A stretch of DNA of 64,000 nucleotides from the sequence record PZ452578.1; one strand, 5' to 3'. Position 1 is the first letter of the stretch. Every line of letters starts with the position of its first letter. The DNA comes from a phage. Positions 19,672 through 59,894 of this stretch are shown in pieces. Below the pieces are notes generated by a model, which searched no databases, had not been told where the DNA came from, and was given only the letters and a program-made list of their open reading frames with translations. The position numbers and the translations under genes are program-made.

Positions 19672-19794
19672 GTCCCATCTCCATATCAATTAAGTCATTT
19701 ATCGTTGGTTCATTATATACTGTTTCTTCATCAGTATAAACCGGTTCTTCCGGCTCTGGCTCTACAGTTTCCCATCTAGCCGCCCACCAGGGTT

Positions 19795-20115
19795 TTATAG
19801 CGTAATCCATTCTCGTACTGTCTGAGTTACTACACGTTCTCGAGGTTCGACTAGTTCAACAGTCGGAACTGCATAATACCAGTCAGAATGATAAGAACCT
19901 GAACGGCATTCATTTACGGAAACATGTACATTATGTTTTGGACTAAAATAAACACACTGACGATATTGGCATTTACCATCTTGCACCCAGTCTTCTATTT
20001 CGATAGGTTTAAGATAGTCAGAAAAATCGAAATCATAGTTTTCCGAAAATGCATCATGGTCTTCGATGATTTCACTCAGAACTGCATCAACATCTAATTT
20101 ATTTTCAGTATTCAT
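19795..20115 (-). CDS. hypothetical protein
   Basis: 106-aa ORF. Confidence 0.5.
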   Translation of the reverse strand: MNTENKLDVDAVLSEIIEDHDAFSENYDFDFSDYLKPIEIEDWVQDGKCQYRQCVYFSPKHNVHVSVNECRSGSYHSDWYYAVPTVELVEPRERVVTQTVREWITL

Positions 20116-37023: not shown

Positions 37024-37201
37024 CTAAACGAATAGGTTCATGAATGCCATATCCTTGAACAGAAATTTCTGTCGTAGGATAAATTCCATCAATATCACCC
37101 ATATTCCAGGCTTCATTAAATTGCTGTTCGCCTGAATTACTAAACCACTCGGCGAAAGCATTTAGCACATCTTTAGAACCTTCAATAATTATCTTTGCCA
37201 T
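36980..37201 (-). CDS. hypothetical protein
   Basis: 73-aa ORF. Confidence 0.45.
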   Translation of the reverse strand: MAKIIIEGSKDVLNAFAEWFSNSGEQQFNEAWNMGDIDGIYPTTEISVQGYGIHEPIRLVEYDLCTGEEVKYD

Positions 37202-37563
37202 TACAAACTCTCAGTAAAGGTACGAGCGATAACGTCGCGCTGCTGTTCCGGAGTCAGAGAGTTAAAGCGAACTGCATAACCAGATACACGGATGGTCAGC
37301 TGCGGATATTTTTCCGGATGCTTAACTGCATCTTCCAGAGTTTCACGACGCAGAACGTTAACGTTCAGGTGTTGACCACCTTCAATTTTAATTGTAGGCT
37401 GTGGCTCAATTTCAATTTCACGGGCATGCAAACCATAGAAAATTTCTGGGTCTACAAAAGAGTCCTCTTTAAAGGTTTTAGAAACGATAATTCGTGCTTG
37501 AATACCATCTTCAAAATAAATAGTGCCTTTGTGTGTGCCTTCAAGAATTTGATATGCTTTCAT
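37201..37563 (-). CDS. GrcA/YfiD-like autonomous glycyl-radical cofactor
   Basis: 120 aa; C-terminus [29 protein letters not shown] is the glycyl-radical signature found in E. coli GrcA and the PFL C-terminus. Confidence 0.8.
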
Positions 37564-37570
37564 ATAAACC

Positions 37571-37897
37571 TCAATTAGAAAATAAATTTATCCAAGATTG
37601 TTCTTTAATTAAAAACGGCTCAGAATCATATGCCATTAAACTTTGGGTGATTAGTCCTTTAAAAGGCCCATCAATAAATTCCATGGTAAAATATGGAATT
37701 TTATTCATTAGCCGTGCATTAGGAGCCGTGCACAAAACTCTGCATCCTTTGAATACGCCTTTTTGTAATTTGTATTGCTTGGGATAAAATTCGCTCAAAA
37801 TGTTATTATTTGCTAAAATTTCAAAATGATTCACCAATTTATTTTTAATAGTTTTTGGCGAAAAATAAAGATATTCGAAAAGCTGAGTGTCTGTCAT
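37571..37897 (-). CDS. hypothetical protein
   Basis: Start set at MTDTQLFEY, overlapping the stop of the upstream ORF. Confidence 0.5.
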
Positions 37898-38436
37898 CAT
37901 TGCATTCCGATTACGAAAAACTGTGGACGAGTAATACCACCAATACAACATTTAATATTACAGCAGCAGTGTACAGTGTCAATATGGACACTATAAATCT
38001 TATCCATATCAGGAGATTTGACAGGCTCATCAATTATATATAAAATTCGCGAAAGCGATAAACCTCTGAACTTGCTTCCTTTATTACCAATAAAACTGCG
38101 CACAGAATCAGTAAATAAACGAAAACGTATATCATCATTAGAATAACGCGAAAATTCCTTTTTAATGTTATTTGCAGAAATTTTAGCGTAAGCTGAAGTA
38201 TTAGAAAGAACAATAACTGTTCCGCCATCATACAGCCAATTAGCAGCAAAGTTAGTCACAGCAATTGATTTACCGGATTGACGTCCACCATCTAGTCGAA
38301 GTGTGCAATACTGTTTAAGTAAGTCTTCAAATGGCGGGATATATTCGTTTTTACAAATTTCTTCTACTCTAGCATCAGAATGGTGTGTAAAAGCATTCAT
38401 CAGGGATAGATAAGGACCAGTTAAAAATGTTCTCAT
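37897..38436 (-). CDS. small P-loop NTPase-like protein with C-terminal Cys cluster
   Basis: 179 aa; Walker A LDGGRQSGKS, Walker B ILYIIDEP, C-terminal HCCCNIKCC. Confidence 0.55.
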   Translation of the reverse strand: MRTFLTGPYLSLMNAFTHHSDARVEEICKNEYIPPFEDLLKQYCTLRLDGGRQSGKSIAVTNFAANWLYDGGTVIVLSNTSAYAKISANNIKKEFSRYSNDDIRFRLFTDSVRSFIGNKGSKFRGLSLSRILYIIDEPVKSPDMDKIYSVHIDTVHCCCNIKCCIGGITRPQFFVIGMQ

Positions 38437-38576
38437 TTCTTCTCTCTAAATTTGGGCCATTCCGTGGCGCATGAATTGTCCATTTCTGTATTTACCCATT
38501 ACCGCGCTTGGGCTCGACCTTATTACAGGTTGGCGGGAATCCCTCACAAAATCATGAGGTCCAGGTTGTTCCCATG

Positions 38577-39050
38577 TTATTTGAATGATTTAACGTACTG
38601 AATAGAACCTTTACTATTCACAAAGGCAATTTTACCATTTTTGTTATACATGGTAGCAGTACGTTGATAGCCATAAGTTTGTTTACCAGATTGATAACCA
38701 ACTAATGCGAAATTATCTTCACCCATTTTATTCTGTTTAGCGCGAATACGTTCATGGCCATGTGCCATAAGAACCTTAGCATCACCAGTTGCAATGGATC
38801 TACGAGTTTTTTCATCTTCAACTGTATTAACAAAGTCGTCAAATGAATCAAATTTAGCATGAGATTTATTATACAGTTTTCCATCTACTGCATAATTATA
38901 TCCTTGTACATCCATCTCAACTTCTGTACCATCATCCAGTACAGCAGTGATTTTCTGTCCTTTTTTAAATTTCAAAAGATCAGTAAAAGATTCAGCAATA
39001 ATTTGAGAATTAATAGCTGCTTCAGTAATAAATTCTTGATAGGTTTTCAT
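38577..39050 (-). CDS. internal-protein-like head cargo protein with capsid targeting sequence
   Basis: 157 aa; N-terminus MKTYQEFITE matches the T4 internal-protein CTS consensus MKTYQEFIAE (prohead protease site L/I-x-E). Confidence 0.7.
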   Translation of the reverse strand: MKTYQEFITEAAINSQIIAESFTDLLKFKKGQKITAVLDDGTEVEMDVQGYNYAVDGKLYNKSHAKFDSFDDFVNTVEDEKTRRSIATGDAKVLMAHGHERIRAKQNKMGEDNFALVGYQSGKQTYGYQRTATMYNKNGKIAFVNSKGSIQYVKSFK

Positions 39051-39066
39051 GTGTTTCCTTTAATTT

Positions 39067-39384
39067 TTATTCTTTAGGGAAGTTTTTAGAATATGCATCA
39101 TAAAGCTTATTTCCAATACGGCGGAAAACTCTAGCCGCAAAACGATTTTCTGGGTTTTTAATCATGATTTGCATCATATAAGTACCCGCGTCAGAAAGAG
39201 CTTCTTCATAGTACCCGTTAATTTCTTTAAGAGTCCTACGTTTACCACCAGGACCATCAACAGTGATTTTCCATTTACCTGTAGAAGTACGACTTGGCGG
39301 CTCAACTTGTTCAATCCAGATATAACCGCCTTCTACACGTTGTCCTGCAGCAGATTCTGCAATAAATTCTTGATATGTTTTCAT
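39067..39384 (-). CDS. internal-protein-like head cargo protein with capsid targeting sequence
   Basis: 105 aa; N-terminus MKTYQEFIAE identical to the CTS consensus; basic body. Confidence 0.7.
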   Translation of the reverse strand: MKTYQEFIAESAAGQRVEGGYIWIEQVEPPSRTSTGKWKITVDGPGGKRRTLKEINGYYEEALSDAGTYMMQIMIKNPENRFAARVFRRIGNKLYDAYSKNFPKE

Positions 39385-39437
39385 GTGTTTCCTTTAAATA
39401 TTTTAATTAGTATAATTTATCTATTTAAGTAACTGTG

Positions 39438-39470
39438 AATATACTATCACAATTCCAAGAGAAAGTAAAC
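39438..39470 (-). promoter_or_regulatory. phage early promoter upstream of the internal-protein genes
   Basis: Minus strand: GTTTAC (-35), spacer, TGaTAGTAT (-10). Confidence 0.5.
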
Positions 39471-39474
39471 AGCT

Positions 39475-40443
<969 letters not shown>

Positions 40444-44144: not shown

Positions 44145-44180
44145 CTTATTTCCTGTTTTAATTCGTGGTTTTAATATATT

Positions 44181-44188
44181 TATTTATA
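44181..44188 (-). promoter_or_regulatory. late promoter (TATAAATA box)
   Basis: Minus strand TATAAATA about 35 nt upstream of the ATG at 44144. Confidence 0.5.
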
Positions 44189-44190
44189 CT

Positions 44191-44221
44191 AAAAAGCCCC
44201 AACCTTTCGGTCGGGGCTAAG
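44191..44221 (-). terminator. intrinsic terminator, 31-bp repeat copy 2 (end of the tRNA operon)
   Basis: Identical to 43636-43666; hairpin plus U-tract on the minus-strand transcript. Confidence 0.6.
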
Positions 44222-44269
44222 CCTTGCGGCAACCTTGTCGGGGTTCCACCTGCTAAGGCAAGTGTTTGT

Positions 44270-44361
44270 ACGAAACGCCGGGATTCGAACCCGGTTATTA
44301 AGCAGTTGACGCTACTCAATATTTTTAAAAGGCCATATCTCGACCATATCCGAACGTTCCG
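44270..44361 (-). ncRNA. tRNA-like small RNA (canonical acceptor and T-arm, non-canonical anticodon region)
   Basis: Minus strand: 7-bp acceptor stem CGGAACG/CGUUUCG and T-arm CCGGG-UUCGAAU-CCCGG, but no regular anticodon stem-loop; about 92 nt. Confidence 0.35.
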
Positions 44362-44534
44362 TCAAAAACGCTACTCGGCTTACGGCAAAGATATTTCCTC
44401 GAATCGATAATTCGGTGCGCCGTTTCTGCTGTGATATAAGTGGACATTAACAAAACATAAAGATTTATTAATGCCAGTCCTTAAACAGGGAACATCAGTC
44501 CGACGACTTACCGGTAGCGACCCGGCTTCTTGTT

Positions 44535-44610
44535 TGGTCGAGGCAGTAGGAATCGAACCTACGACCTAGGACTTAGAAGGTCCTTGCTCTTCCTTCTGAG
44601 CTATGCCTCG
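44535..44610 (-). tRNA. tRNA-Arg (anticodon UCU)
   Basis: Hand-folded cloverleaf: acceptor CGAGGCA/UGCCUCG, anticodon loop CUUCUAA, T-loop UUCGAUU, encoded CCA. Confidence 0.8.
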
Positions 44611-44614
44611 GATT

Positions 44615-44689
44615 TGGCGGACGTGATAGGATTCGAACCTATAACCAATCGCTTAACAGGCGATCGCTCTGCCATTGAGCTACACATCC
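44615..44689 (-). tRNA. tRNA-Asn (anticodon GUU)
   Basis: Hand-folded: acceptor GGAUGUG/CACGUCC (one G-U), anticodon loop CUGUUAA, T-loop UUCGAAU, encoded CCA. Confidence 0.75.
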
Positions 44690-44693
44690 AAAT

Positions 44694-44780
44694 TGGTGGG
44701 GAGTGATGGAGTCGAACCACCCGAGTCGCAATGACAATGGATTTACAGTCCACACCGCTACCTCTACGGGATAACTCCCC
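44694..44780 (-). tRNA. tRNA-Tyr (anticodon GUA), type II with long variable arm
   Basis: Hand-folded: acceptor GGGGAGU/ACUCCCC, anticodon loop CUGUAAA, long variable arm, T-loop UUCGACU, encoded CCA. Confidence 0.75.
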
Positions 44781-44789
44781 TAATTAATT

Positions 44790-44864
44790 TGGTGGCCCTG
44801 GGTGGAATTGAACCACCATCTGGCGATTATGAGTCGCTTGCTTGAACCTTCCAGCTACAGGGCC
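44790..44864 (-). tRNA. tRNA with CAU anticodon (Ile2/lysidine-type or Met)
   Basis: Hand-folded: acceptor GGCCCUG/CAGGGCC, anticodon loop CUCAUAA, T-loop UUCAAUU, encoded CCA. Confidence 0.7.
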
Positions 44865-44865
44865 T

Positions 44866-44941
44866 TGGTGCTGATTGACGGAATCGAACCGCCGACCTTC
44901 TCATTACAAGTGAGTTGCTCTACCTACTGAGCTAAATCAGC
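44866..44941 (-). tRNA. tRNA-Thr (anticodon UGU)
   Basis: Hand-folded: acceptor GCUGAUU/AAUCAGC, anticodon loop CUUGUAA, T-loop UUCGAUU, encoded CCA. Confidence 0.8.
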
Positions 44942-44946
44942 AAAAC

Positions 44947-45036
44947 TGGCGGAGGCGATAGGATTTGAACCTATGAGTCGCCGGAGCGACTGCCGGTTTT
45001 CAAGACCGGTGCATTAAACCACTCTGCCACGCCTCC
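44947..45036 (-). tRNA. tRNA-Ser (anticodon UGA), type II
   Basis: Hand-folded: acceptor GGAGGCG/CGCCUCC, anticodon loop CUUGAAA, long variable arm, T-loop UUCAAAU, encoded CCA. Confidence 0.8.
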
Positions 45037-45038
45037 AG

Positions 45039-45112
45039 TCTCCATACAAGGATTTGAACCTTGGACCTCCTGATCCCAAATCAGGCGCTCTACCAAACTG
45101 AGCTACACGGAG
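45039..45112 (-). tRNA. tRNA-Pro (anticodon UGG)
   Basis: Hand-folded: acceptor CUCCGUG/UAUGGAG, anticodon loop UUUGGGA, T-loop UUCAAAU; CCA not encoded. Confidence 0.75.
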
Positions 45113-45122
45113 TAAATTAAAT

Positions 45123-45196
<74 letters not shown>

Positions 45197-45201
45197 AAAT
45201 T

Positions 45202-45288
45202 TGGTGCGAGAAGTGGGACTCGAACCCACAAGGAAATCATTCCGCAGCATTTTAAGTGCTGTGCCTTTACCAATTTGACCATTCTCGC
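45202..45288 (-). tRNA. tRNA-Leu (anticodon UAA), type II
   Basis: Hand-folded: acceptor GCGAGAA/UUCUCGC, anticodon loop CUUAAAA, long variable arm, T-loop UUCGAGU, encoded CCA. Confidence 0.8.
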
Positions 45289-45289
45289 G

Positions 45290-45362
45290 CTGGGAATAAA
45301 GGACTCGAACCTTTGCATCCTGGAATCAAAATCCAGTGCCTTACCAACTTGGCTAATTCCCA
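45290..45362 (-). tRNA. tRNA-Gln (anticodon UUG)
   Basis: Hand-folded: acceptor UGGGAAU/AUUCCCA, anticodon loop UUUUGAU, T-loop UUCGAGU; CCA not encoded. Confidence 0.8.
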
Positions 45363-58897: not shown

Positions 58898-59894
58898 TTC
58901 AAGTGTTATCTATCGTGCGATAGTTACTTCAAAATTTAGAACAGAAAAAATGTTGAATTTTTATAATTCAATTGGAAGTGGTCCGGATAAAAACACTATC
59001 TTTATTACATTTGGAAGATCAGAACCGTGGTCATCAAACGAAAATGAGGTGGGATTTGCCCCACCTTATCCCACCGATTCTGTGTTAGGTGTAACTGACA
59101 TGTGGACTCATATGATGGGAACAGTGAAGGTTCTTCCATCTATGCTTGATGCAGTTATTCCTCGTCGAGATTGGGGAGATACTAGATATCCGGATCCATA
59201 CACATTTAGAATTAACGATATTGTAGTGTGTAACTCAGCTCCTTACAACGCTACCGAATCAGGCGCAGGCTGGTTAGTATATCGTTGTTTAGATGTTCCT
59301 GATACTGGAATGTGCTCAATTGAGTCTTTAACTAATAAGGATGAATGCCTTAAGCTAGGTGGAAAATGGACTCCTTCTGTTAGGTCAATGACTCCTCCTG
59401 AAGGTCGAGGAGACGCGGAAGGAACAATCGAACCTGGAGACGGGTATGTATGGGAATATCTATTTGAGATTCCGCCTGATGTATCTATAAATAGATGTAC
59501 GAATGAATATATCGTAGTTCCTTGGCCTGAGGAATTAAAAGAAGACCCGACTAGATGGGGGTATGAAGATAATCTCACTTGGCAGCAAGATGATTTTGGA
59601 TTAATTTACCGGGTTAAGGCAAATACTATTCGTTTTAAAGCATACTTAGATTCAGTTTATTTTCCTGAAGCTGCATTGCCAGGAAATAAAGGATTTAGAC
59701 AAATATCGATAATCACGAATCCTCTTGAAGCTAAAGTTCATCCAAATGACCCAAACGTTAAAGCTGAAAAGGATTACTATGATCCGGAAGATTTAATGAG
59801 GCATTCGGGCGAAATGATTTATATGGAAAATAGGCCACCTATTATTATGGCAATGGATCAAACAGAAGAAATCAATATTCTGTTTACATTTTAA
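58890..59894 (+). CDS. 8: baseplate wedge protein gp8
   Basis: 334-aa ORF. Confidence 0.93.
   Translation: MNDSSVIYRAIVTSKFRTEKMLNFYNSIGSGPDKNTIFITFGRSEPWSSNENEVGFAPPYPTDSVLGVTDMWTHMMGTVKVLPSMLDAVIPRRDWGDTRYPDPYTFRINDIVVCNSAPYNATESGAGWLVYRCLDVPDTGMCSIESLTNKDECLKLGGKWTPSVRSMTPPEGRGDAEGTIEPGDGYVWEYLFEIPPDVSINRCTNEYIVVPWPEELKEDPTRWGYEDNLTWQQDDFGLIYRVKANTIRFKAYLDSVYFPEAALPGNKGFRQISIITNPLEAKVHPNDPNVKAEKDYYDPEDLMRHSGEMIYMENRPPIIMAMDQTEEINILFTF

Follow-up and report, generated by a model that had tools for sequence, protein, structure and literature searches.

A conserved SroH-related RNA with a predicted pseudoknotted three-way junction in the vs.8 leader of a T4-like phage

We analyzed a 64,000-nucleotide (nt) stretch of phage DNA (sequence record PZ452578.1; this whole stretch is called the window below), which belongs to a Tequatrovirus with ~97% identity to Shigella phage SH7 across the region of interest, and focused on the 140-nt spacer between an ipIV-like internal protein gene and vs.8, a gene encoding a small P-loop ATPase. 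Judged by sequence comparison, the spacer does not code for protein but holds an RNA that folds on its own around a pseudoknotted three-way junction. The interest of the locus lies in this RNA and not in the protein, with a widespread relative of the Escherichia coli small RNA (sRNA) SroH lying within the vs.8 leader, where it is overlaid by the annotation of T4.

A structured RNA in the spacer upstream of vs.8

The original prediction, made from the sequence alone, had proposed a structured RNA leader upstream of vs.8. This proposal was strongly supported, and the element exceeds a few hairpins, with the following predicted parts in the window:

38454..38573, minus strand: whole structured noncoding RNA in its T4-like form, P1 to 3' hairpin, between the ipIV-like stop (38577) and the vs.8 ribosome-binding site
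38491..38537, minus strand: core, three-way junction P2-P3-P4, consensus nnnnccnACCUGUaauAAGGUCgagccnnagngCGGUAAnGggnnnn, located with covariance model R1
38569..38573, minus strand: P1 5' strand GGGAA, pairing with UUCCC at 38535-38539
38560..38568, minus strand: internal loop J, CAACCUGGA, with CUG (38562-38564) as the proposed 5' strand of the pseudoknot
38542..38559, minus strand: apical hairpin P1b, CCUCAU-GAUUUU-GUGAGG, inside P1
38535..38539, minus strand: P1 3' strand UUCCC, partner of GGGAA
38531..38534, minus strand: P2 5' strand GCCA (columns 5-43, 6-42, and 7-40 of alignment A2)
38517..38530, minus strand: P3 hairpin ACCU-GUAAUA-AGGU, stem nearly invariant
38503..38516, minus strand: P4 hairpin C-GA-GC [CCAAGC] GC-G, with covariation of the inner pair
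38494..38502, minus strand: junction GUAA (38499-38502) and P2 3' strand UGGGU (38494-38498), the second base of which, G 38497, is bulged
38486..38488, minus strand: CAG, proposed 3' strand of the pseudoknot, weak in the T4 subtype
38479..38483, minus strand: second conserved GGA (AUGGA)
38456..38468, minus strand: T4-like-specific 3' hairpin GCCA-CGGAA-UGGC with GGA in the loop, invariant and without covariation

The covariance model of the core, R1, was built from phage sequences only. It scored the window core at 68.3 bits (E = 1.6e-22), which was the sole copy in 64 kilobases (kb), with the next best match at 10.5 bits. Pattern scans of viral, metagenomic, and bacterial collections gathered 49 distinct cores, and because the search patterns spanned P3, P4, and the junction but left P2 unconstrained, P2 served as an unbiased test of covariation. 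In these 49 cores, 95.4% of cells were paired, and 3 P2 pairs were formed in 49 of 49, namely 5-43 (CG 37, GC 10, AU 2), 6-42 (CG 40, GC 3, UA 3, AU 2, GU 1), and 7-40 (AU 27, UA 10, UG 7, CG 5). The covariation score was 0.303 against 0.080 +/- 0.012 for shuffled alignments, with 0 of 500 shuffles reaching the observed value, and it was at most 0.05 when the partners were slid by 1-3 columns. When the alignment was widened by model fitting to 42 distinct sequences, SroH and the most divergent T4-like members among them, the paired share was 96.1%, with changes on both sides in 7 of 11 pairs and an inner P4 pair that occurred as C-G in 35 sequences, U-A in 4, and G-C in 2. Among paired columns, G-U occurred 20 times and A-C 5 times, an excess that fits an RNA transcribed from this strand.

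Compensatory variants of P1 were identified in many relatives, including GGGAG/CUCCC (locus L021), AAAGG/CCUUU, AAAGC/GCUUU, AAAGA/UCUUU, GGGG/CCCC, GGAAC/GUUCC, GAAUG/CAUUC, GAGUG/CACUC, and GGAUG/CAUCC. The hairpin that the original prediction had picked out as CCUCA-8 nt-UGAGG was present at 38559-38542 as P1b, with a compensatory CCUUAU/AUAAGG in 1 relative (L048) and an A-to-G difference between T4 and the window that turns a U-A into a U-G pair and keeps the pairing. Rare compensatory variants were also found in P3, including GCCU/AGGC (L067b and L124) and CCA/UGG (L073), and its hexaloop varied (GUGAAA, GUAGCA, and others). CGGUAA was invariant, the bulged G was at least 90% conserved, and the linkers of the three-way junction (A, CRA, and GGUAA) were near-invariant.

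Evidence for the pseudoknot came from comparison of loop J with the tail that follows P2. In 15 T4-like leaders from Mosigvirus-, Gaprivervirus-, and Jiaodavirus-like phages (type-B leaders), P1 (AAAGN/NCUUU) and an inner helix (P1a) covaried, and a pseudoknot of 3 base pairs (bp) joining the internal loop of P1 to that tail covaried as well and was 100% paired, with 2 of the 3 pairs occurring as CG, GC, and AU types. Across 18 subfamilies, loop and tail carried different complements, including CCGA/UCGG, ACAC/GUGU, CCAG/CUGG, UGAGGG/CCCUUA, AACCA/UGGUU, AUAGCA/UGCUAU, GGGUA/UACCC, CAGA/UCUG, and others. Matched pairs beat permuted pairs in a swap test across the 18 subfamilies (p <= 5e-5), with the J and tail segments delimited by hand; this test was used in place of an RNAduplex test on long flanks, which was too noisy.

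The 3' hairpin (GCCA-NGGAA-UGGC) and the second GGA were invariant, without covariation, in 15 type-B and 12 T4-type leaders, and the hairpin was missing from non-T4-like members. The 2 conserved GGA motifs of the T4-like 3' domain lie ~20 nt apart, and some relatives read ACAUGGAUGA; we take these 2 motifs to resemble CsrA-type binding sites.

A permissive blastn search with the 140 nt returned 1079 phage records. Spacer positions 44-123 had 75-82% identity in other T4-like genera, and positions 40-84 had ~90% identity in rV5-like phages, which belong to a different subfamily. In relatives with Vs.8 proteins only 40-46% identical, the core directly upstream still scored 56-70 bits and its central 32 nt were nearly unchanged. 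The RNA element is under much stronger constraint than the neighboring protein.

The T4 record (AF158101, 64253-64912; L003 3254-3913) annotates vs.8 as 219 amino acids (aa), running through the structured RNA, and the spacer would code for protein if it held the N-terminal 40 residues of Vs.8 as annotated there or a small upstream open reading frame (ORF). An ATG or GTG is indeed retained at the putative start, but this change fits a U-A to U-G change in P1b equally well. The frame annotated in T4 as the Vs.8 N-terminus is closed in the window by an in-frame TAG (38446..38448, minus strand; alignment with T4 and frame survey), which refutes the coding reading for the window. PP01 and JK38 also have the in-frame TAG, and the first 40 vs.8 codons of T4 are open only via TAT and a 9-nt duplication, CTTATAGAG. 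Most relatives carry the TAG, other stops, or frame-breaking indels across the extended frame of T4, and the in-frame extension 5' of the vs.8 ATG was just 0-23 codons in 37 of 40 relatives with a callable downstream gene. The distance from the core to the ATG ranged from 92 to 133 nt, not in multiples of three, and the PHROG family profile starts at the internal Met of the T4 annotation. Protein coding by the spacer is thus practically untenable, and, as far as these alignments can tell, the 219-aa annotation is an artefact, 179 aa is correct, and the T4 reference vs.8 is to be corrected accordingly. Some public Vs.8 gene calls of 194-196 aa are probably over-extended likewise. A reading of the spacer as a remnant of denV, which fills the neighboring slot in T4, was rejected, since T4 itself has the element, downstream of denV.

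The leader had also been called conspicuously GC-rich for this genome, and this was borne out, with a G+C (GC) content of 47.9% against 34.9% for the window (z = 2.8, top 1.1% among all 140-nt segments). The tRNA cluster and the stretch directly downstream of it were among the few other segments equally GC-rich. The high GC of the spacer is that of a base-paired RNA in an AT-rich genome, as for tRNA genes, and the anomaly is therefore a consequence of RNA structure that needs no gene transfer. The suggestion of horizontally acquired DNA found no support at this locus, as the leader was present in every T4-like relative examined and the downstream ORF is the conserved T4-like gene vs.8. A composition scan set the leader apart but left the ORF indistinguishable from its neighbors (GC 35.0%, GC at third codon positions [GC3] 22.8%), and homology searches identified the leader as a widely conserved structured element. 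Further 140-nt segments of leader-level GC were located at 44164-44379, 19725-19891, 334-474, and 59337-59486, the first of which adjoins tRNA-Arg downstream, the place of the stable RNAs rnaD and rnaC in T4 (neither in Rfam). The GC maximum of the neighborhood was the 3' part of vs.6, with up to 50.7% in 140-nt segments.

Relation to SroH and distribution among phages

Weak matches to the Rfam sroH model (11.6-11.8 bits) were obtained with 2 divergent phage members. In turn, R1 reached 43.6 bits (E = 3e-14) in the thiH-yjaZ spacer of E. coli, a stretch that is bona fide SroH (201 bits to RF00372), and 39.5-43.6 bits (E about 1e-11 to 3e-14) on SroH of E. coli, Shigella, and E. albertii. Rfam RF00372 annotates the terminator of SroH only and no other structure. 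Relative to the phage core, P2 and P4 of SroH carried compensatory changes, and its parts can be read as follows:

SroH P1: GGAUG/CAUCC
SroH loop J: CAGCAGA
SroH apical hairpin: CUGAA-GAAA-UUCAG
SroH P2: CGC-A with U-(G)-GCG
SroH P3: ACCU..AGGU base, extended by an inserted stem
SroH P4: inner pair flipped to G-C
SroH junction: CGGUAA
SroH tail: UCUG, complementary to CAGA in the loop, then a further hairpin and the terminator

The phage element thus shares a sequence-and-structure core with SroH, including the bulged G of P2, the ACCU..AGGU base of P3, P4, CGGUAA, the arrangement of P1, loop, and apical hairpin, and a tail able to pair with the loop. SroH differs in having its own ~160-nt transcript and terminator in the thiH-yjaZ spacer, in its extended P3, and in lacking the T4-like 3' hairpin. 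The window leader, for its part, has no promoter or intrinsic terminator of the SroH type, with vs.8 starting 55 nt after the core, and is invisible to the Rfam sroH model, which gave no match on window positions 38420-38600 even at E <= 10 (gathering score 80 bits).

When 1 genome per bacterial species was scanned, the motif was found in Escherichia and Shigella only. The motif being so narrowly distributed in bacteria and so broadly in phages, SroH was probably acquired from a phage. The motif with a yjaZ homologue was also present on phage-like E. coli plasmids of ~90 kb, and sroH and yjaZ ("stationary phase growth adaptation protein") converge both on the chromosome and on these plasmids (L102 1605-2048, L103 2581-3120). 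YjaZ is unrelated to Vs.8, and no Pfam or PHROG family was found for it. In the literature, SroH has been described as polyadenylated and induced in stationary phase, with a link to sensitivity to envelope stress.

Outside T4-like phages, a same-strand tRNA gene was located 39-712 nt from the motif in 15 of 16 loci, often on both sides. Carriers outside T4-like phages included rV5-like phages, phAPEC8-like phages, the Klebsiella phages Pylas (and Pylas-like), KpCHEMY26, and RCIP0108, phages of 146-151 kb such as SF1-1 and DE16, the Pseudomonas phages KIL1-5, and uncultured contigs. In the rV5-like, phAPEC8-like, Pylas-like, and KIL phages, the core is located within tRNA clusters. Across members, the core was followed by vs.8, internal-protein genes, tRNAs, a basic 112-aa protein, a 629-aa protein, or nothing, and in locus L031 the core was followed by an intrinsic terminator. 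In T4-like loci with an examined downstream gene, the element lay directly 5' of vs.8, some Klebsiella phages excepted, which carry 2 copies, one ahead of an internal-protein gene and the other ahead of vs.8. The upstream neighbor in T4-like phages was variable, with denV in T4, the ipIV-like gene in the window, and ip7, ipII, or a 78-aa ORF elsewhere.

The 2 copies in Klebsiella phage RCIP0102 (L029, 3451-3644 and 3946-4150) lie on either side of an ipII gene. The second is a decayed chimera that joins the 5' half of the T4 type to the 3' half of another subtype, with UGGUAA and a non-complementary P2. Tandem copies of the element were identified in L067 and L070, and together with the RCIP0102 chimera they suggest recombination within the element. 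In 46-70-kb phages (L030, L033, L059, L061, and L069), the element was bracketed by repeats consisting of a variable long hairpin followed by UUUCCGUUGUG, and in rV5-like phages (L004, L041, L045, and L046) by CCCUUAGAGGG-CUUGAWAGUGC repeats. These bracketing repeats may be processing or termination signals delimiting a small RNA.

Matches in L084, L086, L090, L094, L096, L099, and L101 and all GC-rich pattern matches scored 15 bits or less and were rejected as chance. Rfam scans of the window and 12 other loci at permissive thresholds returned only tRNAs, group I introns, chance matches, and the weak sroH lead. Neither ARAGORN nor the Rfam tRNA model found a cloverleaf in the leader, and the only tRNAs that ARAGORN called in the window lie at 44535-45362.

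Proposed role and alternative readings

We consider it probable, though well short of certain, that the spacer is an autonomous folded noncoding RNA module with a recognition fold that would bind a conserved partner. The module would be transcribed on the minus strand as part of the early polycistronic transcript that spans the internal-protein genes and continues into vs.8, its tail after P2 would pair back onto the P1 internal loop as a pseudoknot, and its invariant junction and loop bases would bind a single conserved partner, either a small ligand or a macromolecule from the RNA or translation machinery of host or phage. Most phages would make and process the RNA with the tRNAs as a stable small RNA, and in T4-like phages, the module would have become fixed as the 5' untranslated region of vs.8, co-made with the ATPase and presumably processed from the message. 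It may also tune vs.8 translation there, perhaps with the added 3' hairpin as the link to vs.8 expression. The intrinsic terminators at the ends of SroH and L031 argue for autonomous units. It is possible, if doubtful, that the SroH-like junction is a new functional RNA class (ligand-sensing, protein-sequestering, or catalytic) that diverse virulent phages deploy with their tRNA genes to influence the translation or tRNA machinery of the host or a tRNA-targeting defence; in that case, the T4 copy would be the first RNA of this kind from the best-studied phage, and SroH would be one captured from a phage.

Several observations weigh against the reading as an autonomous module. P3 and P4 are almost invariant, which leaves few compensatory events behind them; the segments in the pseudoknot swap test were delimited by hand; and the pseudoknot of the T4 subtype has only 3 bp (CUG/CAG) and is the weakest part of the model for the window. 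The minimum free energy (MFE) of the spacer, -31.2 kcal/mol, is unexceptional against shuffles (z = 0.46), and the MFE fold recovers just P1b and P3, the structure signal being comparative rather than energetic. No promoter-like or terminator-like site was identified at the window leader, where an independent small RNA would need processing. No neighboring protein common to the phage groups was found that could point to a partner; a cis role accounts at least equally well for the strict association with vs.8 in T4-like phages; and SroH has been reported since 2003, with later papers still giving no known function.

The main rival is such a cis role, with the element as a riboswitch-like aptamer or a translational operator bound by a protein, for example Vs.8 or an RNA-binding protein of the host, and controlling the amount of the ATPase. 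Its position directly 5' of vs.8 in the examined T4-like loci, kept even at 40% Vs.8 identity, is what this account expects, as are the invariant GGA-loop hairpin and second GGA 10-30 nt before the ribosome-binding site in T4-like phages. The element is, moreover, conserved, structured, and covarying, and its compact pseudoknotted junction with invariant unpaired bases is aptamer-like. However, the core also occurs without any vs.8 homologue, in tRNA clusters, before unrelated genes with their own promoters, and in terminator-ended SroH, and in some Klebsiella phages one copy precedes an internal-protein gene, so that no consistent downstream gene function of the kind seen with riboswitches is apparent. 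A terminator, an anti-terminator, and anti-Shine-Dalgarno pairing were looked for as an expression platform and none was found, and by inspection an alternative pairing NGGGU/GCCCN was not maintained across relatives. We regard a purely cis-regulatory leader as a serious possibility, though not the probable one.

The same small size, pseudoknotted junction, and near-invariant junction nucleotides would suit a ribozyme that cleaves itself, or a dedicated processing signal for cutting polycistronic transcripts, either tRNA precursors or the vs.8 message, and the phage intergenic and tRNA-cluster sites, the tandem copies in L067 and L070, and the reported processed forms of SroH (PMC5389530) point in that direction. 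Cleavage is nevertheless improbable, given that the ribozyme families of Rfam 15 (hammerhead, twister, pistol, hatchet, hepatitis delta virus [HDV]-like, or similar) gave no match even at E <= 10, no conserved cleavage-site dinucleotide could be identified, and full-length SroH of ~160 nt accumulates in E. coli, unlike an efficient self-cleaver. A role at the DNA level, as a homology block for swapping internal-protein or other cassettes between T4-like genomes with the RNA fold incidental, would explain why the upstream neighbor differs among relatives and why RCIP0102 has copies on either side of ipII, the second a chimera of 2 subtypes. A homology block, however, would not call for compensatory changes, tolerance of G-U pairs, a bulged G, or a pseudoknot, and the motif is kept in phages and in E. 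coli without visible cassette exchange; we therefore consider this role very improbable and recombination at best a side effect of the element.

Several known RNAs resemble the element in part. Aptamers and ribozymes built on a junction and a pseudoknot (THF-I and SAM-type riboswitches, twister, and HDV-like theta ribozymes by phage tRNAs) have a similar size, a three-way junction with a pseudoknot, invariant unpaired nucleotides, and a similar neighborhood, from which the element differs in having no Rfam family match and no expression platform. The HDV-like strand order, the hammerhead core, and resemblances to TPP and ZTP riboswitches were checked by hand, and none fits. ROOL and GOLLD are large phage-associated RNAs, often found by tRNA genes, that exceed 500 nt against about 90-130 nt for the motif and are unrelated to it in sequence. 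The GUAAUA hexaloop, which we take to match the 1095 loop of 23S rRNA, and GCGGUAAU, which we take to match the 530 loop of 16S rRNA, were set aside as coincidence, since the hexaloop varies and SroH has a stem in its place. A reading of the 3' block as a CCA-ended minihelix was also rejected, with pairing registers inconsistent between relatives.

The T4 stable RNAs RNAC and RNAD (species 1 and 2) are, like the motif in other phages, small phage RNAs by tRNA genes (PMC3014915). They adjoin tRNA-Arg and are unrelated to the motif in sequence or structure, as R1 finds nothing in the window tRNA region, and the motif of T4-like phages, unlike RNAC and RNAD, is 6 kb away from the tRNA cluster. 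A 2010 review of T4 stated that no riboswitch or trans-acting sRNA had been characterised in T4, left RNAC and RNAD unexplained, and hoped that the genomes of relatives would supply candidates (PMC3014915). The element is such a candidate, with a covariation-backed fold in a non-essential and easily mutated region. For the orphan sRNA SroH, the comparison supplies a structure and a family and makes a phage origin probable, and SroH and the T4 leader are tied to a recurrent unannotated resident of phage tRNA clusters in several phage families. Literature searches by vs.8 name, motif sequence, and phage tRNA-cluster RNAs found no earlier description, with the 10,006 candidate phage RNAs of PMC10690425 left uncompared.

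The Vs.8 protein and the gene neighborhood

The ORF downstream of the element (37897..38436, minus strand) is T4 gene vs.8, whose 179-aa product contains the Walker A (GGRQSGKS, residues 50-57, 38289-38266) and Walker B (ILYIIDEP, residues 131-138, 38046-38023) motifs noted in the original prediction. Their core residues, D49-G-G-R-Q-S-G-K56 and I134-I-D-E-P138, were invariant or nearly so across 18 homologues with identities as low as 40%. The cysteine run HCCCNIKCC (residues 156-164, 37971-37945), which had been described as the end of the protein, is present but is followed by 15 more residues, and it is not conserved, with HYCCNSKCC in T4 and WPAMLG or similar in other relatives. A truncated NTPase, one of the 2 options raised, is contradicted by the length, as 179 aa is full length for a family of 173-181 aa and residues 3-179 aligned to positions 2-177 of the 177 of phrog_1488 (E = 2.1e-79). 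The other option, a minimal NTPase, is a fair description of a protein with 1 RecA-like domain.

We identified 27 homologues of Vs.8 (94-40% identity), all from T4-like phages, to which the family is restricted. No Pfam family scored above cut-offs, and the weak profile matches were to terminase families, including Terminase_6N at 12.7 bits, below its cut-off of 22, with the nuclease domain absent and the protein ending after 1 domain. An AlphaFold model from the homologue alignment (predicted local distance difference test [pLDDT] 81, predicted template modeling score [pTM] 0.82) gave a single RecA-like domain. With Walker A, Walker B, and a RecA-like beta-sheet core, Vs.8 has the features of an additional strand, catalytic E (ASCE) P-loop ATPase of the terminase/superfamily 2 (SF2)-like RecA fold. 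Its nearest systems are the ATPase subdomain of large terminases (T4 gp17, PDB 2o0h) and the RecA1 domains of SF2 helicases, from which it differs as a lone domain without a nuclease domain, second RecA domain, or lid. On the basis of the model, Vs.8 is predicted to be a minimal stand-alone ATPase domain of the terminase/helicase type; it is an ordinary conserved T4-like gene product.

All genes of the locus, from e to vs.6, are on the minus strand, and the features of the neighborhood are as follows:

39475-39969, minus strand: e (lysozyme)
39067-39384, minus strand: ip10-like internal protein
38577-39050, minus strand: ipIV-like internal protein (DUF7412)
38437-38576, minus strand: 140-nt spacer between the ipIV-like gene and vs.8
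37897-38436, minus strand: vs.8, 179 aa, single-domain RecA-like P-loop ATPase
37571-37900, minus strand: vs.7
37201-37563, minus strand: vs.6, GrcA/YfiD-like autonomous glycyl-radical cofactor
44535-45362, same strand as vs.8 and 6 kb upstream: ten contiguous tRNA genes (ARAGORN)

The tRNA genes are ordered Arg, Asn, Tyr, Met, Thr, Ser, Pro, Gly, Leu, and Gln, without the interrupting homing-endonuclease gene segB, which in T4 comes after tRNA-Arg. The cassette between e and vs.8 (window 38577-39474) is polymorphic between relatives, with ip10-like and ipIV-like genes and no denV in the window, denV placed between e and ip10 in JK38 (L002), and ipIII, ipII, and denV in T4 (L003). A gene for an Acb2/Tad1 hairpin domain, an anti-defence nucleotide sponge, was identified a few genes 3' of vs.8 in the vs cluster of 2 loci (L125 3254-3535 and L126 3598-3873).

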